A DNA stretch of 64,000 nt. Source: Novakomyces olei. Its lineage: Eukaryota. Of this stretch, positions 17,714 through 54,350 are shown in pieces (the stretch's first letter is position 1; every line of letters starts with the position of its first letter). The DNA is taken from contig JADEYG010000012.1 of assembly GCA_016906335.1 (NCBI GenBank), positions 1,178,001 through 1,242,000 on the forward strand, written 5' to 3'. The notes below the pieces were generated by a model. It was not told the DNA's origin and made no database searches. It saw nothing but the letters and a program-made list of their open reading frames with translations. A program made the position numbers and the translations under genes.

Positions 17714-18606
17714 ATGGACTACCAGGTAAGAAGCTCTTTCTACAACTCTATCTTACTAATGTTGTAGAACAGGGCCGGCAGCAAGTTTGGCGGCGGCGGC
17801 GTCGCCGGCGTTTCTGAGACTAACTTAAACCGCAGAGAACGGTTACGGAAGTTAGCGCTTGAAACGATAGATCTAGCAAAAGATCCTTATTTCATGAAGA
17901 ATCATCTAGGATCTTATGAATGCAAGCTGTGCTTGACTCTCCATGCTAATGATGGCTCCTATCTCGCACATACGCAAGGCAAAAAGCATCAAACAAACTT
18001 AGCTCGTCGTGCTACATTAGATCGCGAACGGGCAGCTCGACTAGGTGTAGCCAACCGCAATTTTGATGCTCTATCAGCCGCTGCTGCTGCTGATAGAGCT
18101 GCAGCCGGACCTGCAGCTTCTGCTGTTGCCGGAGGAAAAAAATCGTTCATAAAAATTGGTCGGCCCGGATACCGTATTATGAAGGTGCGCAGTAGGGAGG
18201 GCGAGGATACCCACAGTCCAGCTCAGGACGGAGTTTTCATACAAGTTTCTTTGCCAGAAATCGCACCGGGCGTGAAGCCTAGGCATAGGTTCATGTCTGC
18301 GTACGAACAGCGACAAGAACCTCCTGATCGAGAGTACCAGTATTTGATTATTGCGGCAGAGCCCTATGAGTCTATTGCAATAAAACTAGGTGAGTTTTAT
18401 CATATTTTAATTTATTTTAATCATTTTAAATCTATTAATAATAATGATTTATTTTATGGAATAAGCTAATCAGAATAGAGGCTCGAGAAATTGATCGTTC
18501 ACAGGGGAAATTTTACGAATACTGGGATTCTCCTAATTACTACATGCAATTTTTCTACAAGTCGCCTCGAGTGGATAATAAGATTTCTGCTGTTCCCGGT
18601 CTGTAG
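17714..18606 (+). CDS. PRP11: Splicing factor SF3a subunit 2 (Sap62/Prp11)
   Basis: MDYQ/NRAGSKFGGGG...RRERLRKLALETIDLAKDPYFMKNHLGSYECKLC; introns 17726-17767 and 18390-18478. Confidence 0.95.
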
Positions 18607-18912: not shown

Positions 18913-19529
18913 CTAGTCGGTACTTGCGCAACCGTGGCAGCCTGATTGGTTAATAAATTATGGAATCTGTGCACTAAACTCACCACAATGAATACAGTCT
19001 ACTTCCGTATTGGCGTCCAATTTATGTTTTGGTACGCGGCATACGCACGTGTTGTTAAAGTTGGTCTCTGATGTCGCAATGCATTTTAGGCAGCAAAGTT
19101 TCTCATATCCAGGCTAAAGGTTAATATCGATTTTAAAGATCGACAAAGCTAGACTGCCCACCTTTTTCCACTTTGCTATAAGATTACCGTCCGCAAAACC
19201 TTGCTTAAGGAGCCAGTCATAAAGCTCCCGAGAAATAGCATCCCGGTTGTAGTAGAGATCATAGACGTAGCGAGACCGCTGATGATGTATCTGCATTATT
19301 TTATGTGTAAGCTGTACTTTGATCTTGTCGTGCCCAGGATCCGACTCGGCGTCTCGCATCTTGAGCGCAAATGCCTCCAAGGTGGGCGCGATTTTGTCAT
19401 AGCCAGCAGGTGCTCTGCTACGTTAGTCATCATAGGCTATAACAAATATCCTCACGGCCGCTTGCAGTAGGAAGAATCTAACTAAAAATAGCCTTACTTT
19501 TTCGTTCGTAAAGTCTTGATACGAGGCAT
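18913..19529 (-). CDS. BUD31: Spliceosomal protein Bud31/G10/Cwf14
   Basis: MPRIKTLRTK...HHQRSRYVYDLYY...KWKK/PGYEKLCCLKC...CIHC/GCHGCASTD; introns 19415(or 19418)-19497, 19114-19161, 18942-18983. Confidence 0.95.
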
Positions 19530-19640: not shown

Positions 19641-19857
19641 TCTAATTTATGTAATAGCAAGAGAATAAATCTAATTTTCTACGATTATACAAATTTAACT
19701 ATCTGTTGTAACTAACCCGTATGAAATATTAATTATAAAAAATTTGCATTGAACACAATCAATTGGTTTGCAGTGGCATTGCTCTTATTCAGCAAAGCTC
19801 CATTTTGAGATTGCTGTGATCAACGTTACGTTCGTGTAAGTTTCTATCTCGACTCTC

Positions 19858-19938
19858 GTTCCGAATGATGTAATTTACAAACGATAACTTTTGAGCTTCG
19901 GCTTTGATCGTTTCAATTAGCTCTAGAACTGACGGAAC
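19858..19938 (+). ncRNA. Box C/D snoRNA, predicted guide for the 18S A in UUCU-A-GAGCU (about A162, yeast numbering)
   Basis: Terminal stem GTTCCG/CGGAAC, C box ATGATGT 19865, D box CTGA 19929; 13-nt guide ATTAGCTCTAGAA complementary to conserved 18S TTCTAGAGCTAAT. Confidence 0.85.
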
Positions 19939-20034
19939 ATATTTGTTTTCCTTACCATTCTCTTTATACGCGCAGTTATTCTAACAATGTCAGCAGATCA
20001 CGCGTTTCATACAGTAAGTCATTCTGTGGCGGCA

Positions 20035-20140
20035 GCACTGTGGTGATGATGAAAAAGCCTTTCGTTTTAACGAGTCTCGACTGTTTAGTGATGACTAAAG
20101 CCTTTCAATACCAAAAGTTTCAGCCTTGTCTGAGCAGTGT
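20035..20140 (+). ncRNA. snR41: Box C/D snoRNA snR41 (18S Gm1126 guide)
   Basis: Stem GCACTG/CAGTGT, C box GTGATGA 20043, C' 20088, D CTGA 20130; guide AAGTTTCAGCCTTG complementary to 18S CAAGGCTGAAACTT. Confidence 0.88.
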
Positions 20141-20268
20141 CGTGCACGCCAATTTTTCGGGCTAGCTTGCTTACCACTAAAGCAAAAATTCCATAATGAT
20201 TCGATAATAAACGATCGGGTTATTCCTCCGTTTGTTTTCTACAAATTTCTCGAAGGTGAGTCTACAAG

Positions 20269-20380
20269 GGCCATATGATATGATGATTGCTCAAGACGTA
20301 CGGGCGGACTAAGCACCAGTTACGAATAATGTACAAGGAACTGGATTTGCTGCTGAGAAAAGTCTTTCTGATCATTGGCC
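20269..20380 (+). ncRNA. snR70: Box C/D snoRNA snR70 (18S Cm1639 guide)
   Basis: Stem GGCCA..TGA/TCATTGGCC, C box ATGATGA 20280, D CTGA 20368; guide ACGGGCGG before D' CTAA (18S CCGCCCGT); extra element TGTACAAGG in an internal hairpin. Confidence 0.85.
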
Positions 20381-20444
20381 TAATCGCATTTTGCTTTGAA
20401 ATTAAATTGACTAACTTTCTCAAGGTACGTATGCTCGCAGAGTT

Positions 20445-20546
20445 CTGTGCTCGGTGCTGATGAAATCTTAATACTGCGTATTCACACTGTCTGAAAATCA
20501 TTCGTGACGCAAAATCTTTTGGAGACCTTCTGAGCCGTTCGCACAG
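20445..20546 (+). ncRNA. snR51: Box C/D snoRNA snR51 (25S Um2729 guide at D')
   Basis: Stem CTGTGC/GCACAG, C box TGATGA 20458, D' CTGA 20491 with guide GTATTCACACTG (25S CAGTGTGAATAC), D CTGA 20530; the snR41-70-51 order matches the known yeast cluster. Confidence 0.85.
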
Positions 20547-20720
20547 GCCAAATTTTCTACAAAGCTAAACAAATAGGCATATTATTTGCAAAAGTCTGAA
20601 CTTTACTGGCTCAATTCTGTCCACTAGTCAAGGTTCTTGATACAAAGTAAGTCCTTAGTCAAACGGAATGTGAGCACACAAATTCTCGTTTATGTTCTTA
20701 TGAATACAAGTTTTGAGAAA

Positions 20721-20822
20721 GGCAGCAGAATGATGTAAACATGATTCGCTGCGTTCTTGCCAAGTGGGCTGTATTGCAGTCGTATGCAGATTATAATCAT
20801 CTTGGAGAACTGATTTGCTGCC
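20721..20822 (+). ncRNA. Box C/D snoRNA, dual guide for 5.8S (about A43) and the 25S C in UCU-C-CAAG
   Basis: 9-bp stem GGCAGCAGA/TTTGCTGCC, C box ATGATGT 20730, D CTGA 20810; 14-nt TTCGCTGCGTTCTT complementary to 5.8S AAGAACGCAGCGAA; ATCTTGGAGA complementary to 25S UCUCCAAGGU. Confidence 0.85.
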
Positions 20823-20876
20823 AAACTTTATTCATATATTTATTCATTTATATCGAATATCCTTTTAAGTTATCAG

Positions 20877-21719: not shown

Positions 21720-23034
21720 TTATTCCCGGTCTAATGTACCATCAAACTGTAAATTGCGTCGCAATTGTTCCTGCCAAGCATCATCGTCCCTTTCAATTGC
21801 CGACCATTCAATCACATTATCCTGTCCAAGCGCAAAATTGCTCTGCCGAGTTCGCACCAGACTGACCATATGCGCACCAGTGTTGAGTGCCTTGCCCAAG
21901 TCGTGAATGAGCGATCGCACATAAAAGCCAGAGCTCACGTTCATATGAAGCCGAATGATGGGTGGCGCGAGCTTATCACCTGCTTTATCAAGAGCATCAG
22001 CGACAGAATTGACCTCTTTCTTGAGTTCAGTACTTTTATCAGAACCCTCTAATGGCACTGCCTCTGCACCCGTATACGCAACATTTTCCTCGGCTGACTT
22101 CACGGCTGGTTTGCCGCCTTTCTCTTCACTGCCAAATTTATCATTGTTTTGCTTATTCATTTTAGTTGAATTTTCAGCCTTTTCCGTTCCTTCATTAGCT
22201 ATTTCCGTAGACTTTACACGCTTCGTAGGGGGCTCTGCACCATATAAAAGCTTCTCCGACTCAATCTCAACCTCCGAGCCAGTCTCTGTTGGCGCCTTAA
22301 AGTCGTGTTCACGAGTGAATTCCAATAATTCCACTTGACAAGAAACTTGCCGTGCGGCAATTTCCCTTGGAAGTGGTAAGCCTTCTCGGGCATACTCGTA
22401 CAAAGCTTTCCCGTCCATTTTCAGTGCAGAATAAAGGGGTGGTAATTGGAGCAGATCCGGTCGGCAAAAGGCCTTGAGAGCCTCACGTACTTTGGCCTCC
22501 GTTATATGAGCGCTTGGTGCACTGTACAAGCACCGTCCTGCGCTATCATACGTTGTAGTTGCGCTGCCAAAGAGCGCTACGGCCTCATATTCTTTGGTGC
22601 CACTCAGAAACTGGTGCAGCTGTTTTGTGCCTGAATTGATCCCGACAACTTGCAGGTTAGATTTGCCTTGAATTTTGAATTTCGCATTTAATTTAGGTTT
22701 TAAACTCTTTATCATCAAAGATTTTCTGCATTGACCTGTTCAGAACCTCTATTTGAGCCAATTTTCTTGTTTTTCCATTACCTAAGACACCACTAGCTAA
22801 TGGGTCAAGTGTTCCTCCATGGCCCATTTTGAAATCTGGTATATTTCCACGTCGTCTCCTACTTTTTGCCGGAGTAGAGCGAAGTTGGGGTCCTAGACTG
22901 CTTTTACGCAGAGCTGCTTTGAATTCTTTGAATTAATTACGTTTTCCAGATACAATTATTTGCTTACTGTCCAGTAAGCCCGCCGAACTAATACCCGAAG
23001 GCTTATTTAGCCCAACGAGGCCGCTACCGACCAT
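21720..23034 (-). CDS. PUS4: tRNA pseudouridine-55 synthase (TruB family)
   Basis: NKPSGISS, KMGHGGTLDPLASGVL/VVG, PPLYSALKMDGKALYEYAREG, SSGFYVRSLIHDLG; introns 22926-22967 and 22649-22781. Confidence 0.93.

Positions 23035-51896: not shown

Positions 51897-54350
<2,454 letters not shown>

Follow-up and report, generated by a model that had tools for sequence, protein, structure and literature searches.

Five box C/D snoRNAs lie in a row on the + strand of the window (the whole stretch of DNA that was analysed, 64,000 nucleotides), each between a splice donor and a splice acceptor. Between the third and the fourth of these RNAs, an acceptor is followed immediately by a donor. This arrangement raises the question of whether the surrounding 321 nt form one intron with two snoRNAs or two introns with one snoRNA each, and, if there are two, whether anything is left between them as an exon.

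Results

Layout of the host gene

The features of the host gene are collected in Table 1, with splice sites predicted from the sequence. The predicted internal exons are tiny (20, 73, 0, and 70 nt). The snoRNA of the first intron gave only a weak Rfam match to a C/D family (snoR53Y, E = 6.1).

Table 1. Predicted features of the snoRNA host gene and the adjoining open reading frame, in positions of the window.
Feature	Position	Strand	Signals and remarks
Intron 0 (predicted)	19836–19993	+	Donor GTAAGT 19836–19841; branch CTAAC 19981–19985; first AG after the branch 19992–19993
Box C/D snoRNA in intron 0	19858–19938	+	C box ATGATGT 19865–19871; D box CTGA 19929–19932; 6-bp terminal stem
Putative 20-nt internal exon	19994–20013	+	Between predicted acceptor 19993 and donor GTAAGT 20014–20019
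snR41-like intron (predicted)	20014–20182	+	Probable branch CTTAC 20170–20174; acceptor AAG ending 20182
snR41-like C/D snoRNA	about 20036–20139	+	D box CTGA 20130–20133
Putative 73-nt exon	20183–20255	+	No AG inside
Upstream abutting intron, 169 nt (predicted)	20256–20424	+	Donor GTGAGT 20256–20261; branch ACTAAC; acceptor AAG
snR70-like box C/D snoRNA	about 20269–20380	+	C box ATGATGA 20280–20286; D box CTGA 20368–20371; terminal stem of ~10 bp
AG/GT junction (putative zero-length exon)	20424–20425	+	Read directly; homologous boundary AG/GT in 52/54 sequence clusters
Downstream abutting intron, 152 nt (predicted)	20425–20576	+	Donor GTACGT; branch-like GCTAAAC 20565–20571; acceptor TAG ending 20576
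snR51-like box C/D snoRNA	about 20449–20540	+	C box TGATGA 20458–20463; D' CTGA 20491–20494; D CTGA 20530–20533
Putative 70-nt exon	20577–20646	+	No ATG; between acceptor 20576 and donor GTAAGT 20647–20652
Last intron (predicted)	20647–20869	+	Acceptor TTTTAAG ending 20869 or CAG ending 20876; no clear branch motif
Afu_294-family C/D snoRNA	20726–20816	+	Rfam RF01506 at 44.3 bits (gathering score 43)
RRP40 (exosome subunit) ORF, 248 aa	20877–21623	+	Pfam RRP40_S1 1.5e-25, KH_6 3.3e-08

A second AG/GT occurs at 20255/20256 (cgaAG/GTGAGT), preceded by 73 nt free of AG and by a pyrimidine-rich run. Alternatively, the putative 73-nt exon may form the 3' portion of the snR41-like intron, and 20255/20256 would then be a second abutting junction. 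Acceptor 20182 lies 49 nt past the D box of the snR41-like snoRNA and acceptor 20255 lies 122 nt past it, the corresponding distance in relatives being 64–95 nt. On the basis of this spacing, acceptor 20182 was preferred over the AG at 20254–20255. Segments of 73 nt without AG make up 4.3% of those on the + strand, so this run counts for little as evidence. We did not take a second zero-length exon at 20255/20256 as the main reading, because the D-box-to-acceptor spacing tells against it and no branch motif lies close by, and the snR41-snR70 boundary in the window probably keeps its 73-nt exon.

Anatomy of the snR70-snR51 junction

By direct reading of the + strand, GACTAAC occupies positions 20409–20415, with the branch A at 20414. 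The branch site ACTAAC (20410–20415) is followed by TTTCTC (20416–20421) and the acceptor AAG (20422–20424), and the donor GTACGT (20425–20430) starts directly after base 20424 with no intervening nucleotide. Branch, AG, and GT are thus arrayed without a gap at 20424/20425, as in a zero-length exon or recursive splice site. The earlier note had described just such an acceptor abutting a donor, and all of its coordinates were right; the outer ends that it implied, a GTGAGT donor at 20256 and a TAG acceptor ending at 20576, are present as well. The pattern CTAAC-N(2-25)-AGGTAHGT matched once in the 64-kb window, both strands considered, and 0.05 matches were expected by chance (the mean of 100 dinucleotide-preserving shuffles, of which 5 matched). 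The internal signals ACTAAC...AAG/GTACGT are strong for this genome, because the three apparent introns of the nearby BUD31 gene use similar branches (GACTAAC or TTAAC, 5–8 nt from the acceptor) and have no better donors (GTAAGG, GTGGGC, and GTGAGT). The acceptor triplet of the window, AAG, has A at −3, which is a minority state in relatives (3/44). The AAG at the end of the upstream exon (20253–20255) is identical to the AAG at the end of the upstream intron (20422–20424), so the donor context AAG/GTACGT would be the same before and after a first splicing reaction.

A 4-nt exon had also been considered in the earlier note, in which GTAC (20425–20428) would be included in the mature RNA and GTATGC at 20429–20434 would serve as the second donor. 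There is indeed a GT at 20429–20430, but GTATGC overlaps GTACGT, and this GT is simply positions +5 and +6 of the latter. GTATGC has no T at +6 and is preceded by C at −1, and relatives conserve AG/GTA only, with no second donor. The idea of an included micro-exon is barely credible to us and was dropped.

The 321 nt from 20256 to 20576 can also be taken as a single intron in which the internal signals are unused relics. The lariat would be dicistronic, and its snoRNAs would be separated by an endonuclease or by trimming to protected ends. The earlier note had listed a dicistronic lariat as one possibility, other eukaryotes have introns that contain several snoRNAs, the mature spliced product would be identical, and nothing in the DNA forbids this arrangement. 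However, the MFE fold of 20256–20576 contained no extended stem-loop between the two snoRNAs of the kind expected of an RNase III (Rnt1)-type spacer; the spacer stem had only 8 bp with a 20-nt loop, and the z-score of the whole region was +0.87. Because the spacer has no extended stem and its stability is not unusual, endonucleolytic separation gets no support. The spacing of the signals likewise speaks against a single intron. From the end of the D box to the predicted acceptor there are 43–61 nt for each host-gene snoRNA, including 53 nt from the snR70-like RNA to 20424, whereas without the internal acceptor the snR70-like RNA would be 205 nt from the next and sole acceptor.

Identity of the flanking snoRNAs

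Both RNAs that flank the junction possess the C box, D box, terminal stem, and guides of box C/D snoRNAs. Neither matched Rfam snR70 or snR51 at E ≤ 10, and their matches to other C/D families were weak and sub-threshold; the snR41-like snoRNA scored 26.8 bits (E = 0.07) against Rfam snR41, below the gathering score. The snR70-like RNA carries the guide ACGGGCGG at 20300–20307, which presumably fits the 18S site assigned to snR70. The snR51-like RNA carries the D' guide GTATTCACACTG at 20478–20489, and this guide is common with relatives. The second snR51 guide of the relatives, GATTTAATGAG, does not occur on either strand anywhere in the window. In the snR51-like RNA, TTTTGGAGACCTT stands before box D (20495–20533) in the place of that second guide, and it overlaps in sequence with the D guide TCTTGGAGAA of the neighbouring Afu_294 snoRNA. 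No guide sequences for snR51 are given in PMC8413462. The names snR70 and snR51, which the earlier note had assigned, therefore found no backing in Rfam but are supported by synteny with the snR41-like snoRNA and by a guide order that recurs in 93 of 112 listed loci (see below) and agrees with cluster III as described by Luo et al. 2013 (PMC3596301).

Survey of fungal metagenome loci

Relatives of the locus were sought in metagenomes with a pattern taken from the snR41-like snoRNA (C box, gap, 15-nt D guide, and D box), and at least 112 fungal loci matched. The 15-nt snR41 D guide is identical in all 112 listed loci because it is the search pattern itself. The order snR41 D guide, ACGGGCGG, TTCACACTG, as in the window, was seen in 93 of the 112 listed loci. 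The snR70 guide word was present downstream of snR41 in 105/112 listed loci, and the snR51 D' guide word was kept in 96/112. Among the other 19 listed loci, 15 end at a contig end (<550 nt downstream), L067, L073, and L098 have one-base guide variants with AG/GT still at both boundaries, and L086 (486 nt downstream) has no exact ACGGGCGG word. The 93 loci were reduced to 54 clusters by 8-mer similarity. No close relative of the window was present among the 112 listed loci, and blastn of the whole host gene returned guide-sized matches only.

An Afu_294-type snoRNA came next in 41 of 50 representative loci, as in the window, and none of 46 representative loci had the U45-type guide word of the window's first snoRNA ahead of snR41. 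In 36 of the 50 representative loci (e.g. L002, L004, L017, L029, and L056), a donor stands directly after the second snR51 guide. Box D of these loci lies beyond a short intron, so that the snoRNA itself must be spliced; the interrupting intron matches the nested 'intron B' that Luo et al. 2013 report from Euascomycetes (PMC3596301).

Conservation of the junction

An AGGT was present in the snR70-snR51 spacer of 52 of the 54 clusters (mononucleotide shuffles: mean 14.5, maximum 21) and in the snR41-snR70 spacer of all 54 (mean 9.5, maximum 17). The sequence features around these sites were counted only in spacers with exactly one AGGT, to avoid site selection, and were compared with a background of 2255 further AGGT sites from these loci. 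For the snR70-snR51 and snR41-snR70 spacers, respectively, A at +3 was found in 38/44 and 51/52 (background 22.7%), a pyrimidine at −3 in 39/44 and 52/52 (38.4%), and CTRAY within 28 nt upstream in 41/44 and 50/52 (5.5%). All three features coincided at 0.7% of the background sites. Conservation of AG/GT in relatives, which the earlier note had proposed looking for, is thus borne out, with the branch, −3, and +3 positions far above background.

Because branch and YAG are conserved across relatives, the internal acceptor appears to be functional; because GTA is conserved in spacers that have otherwise diverged, we argue that the internal donor is functional too, rather than the acceptor alone. 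Relics would not keep branch, YAG, and GTA in 52 of 54 diverged clusters, and we regard a single 321-nt intron as improbable, with a dicistronic lariat possible as a minor path. Nearly all fungi in the sample have the predicted exon-less boundary between snR70 and snR51. The junctions there may be homologous rather than products of convergent exon loss; the relatives are distant, and a single origin is only a candidate.

The exceptions at the snR70-snR51 boundary were two of the 54 clusters, L007 and L008. L007 has an apparent exon of ~44 nt between TAG and GTTAGT. L008 has AG/GC where the near-identical L020 and L025 have AG/GT, a possible GC donor.

Several loci showed further variation in the snR70-snR51 spacer. 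Two AGGT sites 27–48 nt apart were seen in L011, L012, L015, L083, L084, and L089, with a branch motif belonging to the second site between them; these may be third mini-introns without a snoRNA that adjoin the other introns, or chance. In L034, L041, L050, L081, L087, L099, L022, and L052, the branch is only 3 nt from the AG (e.g. CACTAAC-AG/GT). Yarrowia-like yeasts typically have branches this close to the acceptor, and if these loci are Yarrowia-like, the exon-less boundary spans several ascomycete subphyla.

Host transcript and lineage

The RRP40 ORF begins 8 nt after the last putative acceptor and probably makes up the final exon of the host transcript. RRP40 homologues cover up to 98% of this ORF, so the host exons upstream of it would be 5' leader. 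The host may be the RRP40 mRNA, with the five snoRNAs in introns of its 5' leader. In the metagenome locus L042, an RRP40 homologue lies ~2.3 kb upstream of snR41 on the same strand.

Other genes for RNA processing were recognised around the host by Pfam, namely SF3a2/Prp11 (17894–18469, + strand), BUD31 (19114–19380, − strand), and a TruB-family pseudouridine synthase (21720–22718, − strand), with CEF1/CDC5 further away (52398–54350). This clustering may be due to chance.

The window also encodes a glycogen synthase and an inositol-1-phosphate synthase, both of which, to our knowledge, fission yeasts lack. The best named match of the glycogen synthase was from Taphrina deformans (74%), followed by early-diverging yeasts, Saitoella, and Neolecta, and the best named matches of Rrp40 were from Schizosaccharomyces species (43%). 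We read the source as an early-diverging ascomycete that lacks close named relatives in the collection searched.

Discussion

On the basis of these results, segment 20256–20576 is likely to be a pair of complete spliceosomal introns that adjoin directly and are removed in separate reactions. This is the sequential removal, with a zero-length exon and one snoRNA per lariat, that the earlier note had put forward, and it is supported by the anatomy of the junction and by 52 of 54 clusters. The upstream intron (20256–20424) would leave first, so that 20255 is joined to 20425 and AAG/GTACGT is recreated, and the second intron (20425–20576) would be removed after it; the order is drawn from EST and RT-PCR data reported for other fungi (PMC3596301). 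Chemically, either intron could go first, since taking out one leaves the other whole. Each snoRNA would then reside in a lariat of its own and would be released by debranching and exonucleolytic trimming, the established route of intronic snoRNA maturation.

Abutting snoRNA introns without an exon have already been published, and the window is a further instance. Luo et al. (2013, PLoS One, PMC3596301) described the introns of snR41-snR70-snR51, their cluster III, as lying 'in juxtaposition without intercalating exons'. According to their account, cluster III has the arrangement intron-intron-intron in all Euascomycetes examined, introns of this kind also occur in Archiascomycetes, and earlier work (reference 15 of that paper) is credited with showing that internal exons are small or absent in Candida and Yarrowia. 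Judged by its guides, the window has the same snoRNAs in the same order as cluster III. It differs in that its lineage lies outside the four Schizosaccharomyces species analysed in that paper, in that only the snR70-snR51 exon has clearly been lost, and in that its host appears to run into the RRP40 ORF, whereas the hosts described by Luo et al. are non-coding. In Saccharomyces cerevisiae, according to the same paper, snR41-snR70-snR51 are made from an unspliced polycistronic primary transcript; this unit has the same three snoRNAs in the same order, whereas in the window each of them has intron signals.

Among the ESTs reported by Luo et al. (PMC3596301; n = 42), 18 lacked intron I, 14 lacked introns I and II, 10 lacked all three, and 0 showed the reverse order. 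These ESTs, together with their RT-PCR products, are compatible with stepwise removal from 5' to 3', and, as the authors state, they remain equally compatible with a single donor that is used with several acceptors. For the window, the latter would mean that donor 20256 pairs with either 20424 or 20576 and that the GT at 20425 is never a donor. The relatives give this some room, as their internal donors are weak at +5 (G in 16/44 at the snR70-snR51 boundary and 12/52 at snR41-snR70) and may be inefficient. On the other hand, the enrichment of A at +3 at both boundaries is a donor feature that an acceptor alone does not account for, the good GTACGT donor of the window would have no reason to persist if unused, and products spliced to 20424 would be a dead end retaining the snR51 intron. 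In Schizosaccharomyces pombe, moreover, the peaks reported at a zero-length exon define a 3' splice site and an adjacent 5' splice site (bioRxiv 10.1101/226894). A choice of acceptors by one donor is in our view highly improbable. Because internal donor and acceptor are both conserved, two separate introns are favoured over relic signals as well as over a one-donor choice.

The S. pombe example comes from spliceosome profiling by Chen et al. (2018, bioRxiv 10.1101/226894), who located a zero-length exon within the intron (336 nt) of SPNCRNA.445, the host of snoRNA61; they reported the site to be conserved in the genus and regarded it as the first recursive splicing documented for a yeast. As in the window, a 3' splice site adjoins a 5' splice site within a snoRNA-host intron of similar length (336 versus 321 nt). 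The evidence reported for SPNCRNA.445 is direct (5'-phosphate and 3'-OH peaks and RT-PCR), whereas the junction of the window is predicted from sequence. By name, snoRNA61 belongs to cluster II of Luo et al., and SPNCRNA.445 was treated as a different cluster from that of the window because the name snoR61 goes with 25S position 1133 in yeast. Sequential removal of abutting introns agrees with what ESTs, RT-PCR, and spliceosome profiling have shown in other fungi (PMC3596301; bioRxiv 10.1101/226894).

Stwintrons, as described in PMC8469720, are likewise pairs of contiguous U2-type introns that are excised one after the other. In a stwintron, however, a splice signal of the outer intron is split by the inner one, whereas the introns of the window merely abut. 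A stwintron was rejected for this locus; each of its introns has an intact donor, branch, and acceptor of its own. The recursive splice sites (ratchet points) of Drosophila and vertebrates are AG/GT sites that let long introns leave in pieces, and the work of Georgomanolis et al. from 2016, to which Chen et al. refer, is reportedly a source on them. Animal ratchet points split very long introns, whereas the introns of the window measure about 150–170 nt, and the benefit of the arrangement seen here is likely to be one snoRNA per lariat.

The general picture is unchanged by this locus, as publications of 2010–2018 had already described zero-length exons in snoRNA hosts of fungi. What is new is the occurrence of abutting snoRNA introns in an early-diverging ascomycete lineage outside the species that the relevant text of the two papers names. 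The constraint on the internal donor GTA bears on the question raised by Luo et al., namely stepwise splicing versus one donor with several acceptors. For annotation, the consequence is that gene callers will fuse such pairs into one intron, probably wrongly.

A wider reading, which we consider unlikely and offer tentatively, combines two proposals: that the AG/GT between snR70 and snR51 is one ancient recursive site, and that the host transcript is the RRP40 mRNA. The site would then predate the split of the window's lineage from the Pezizomycotina-like and Yarrowia-like fungi of the metagenome loci, with no repeated recent loss of exons, and it would have been kept because each snoRNA needs its own lariat. 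If both proposals were true, five snoRNAs and a subunit of the enzyme that trims snoRNA 3' ends would be coupled through one promoter and one splicing cascade.
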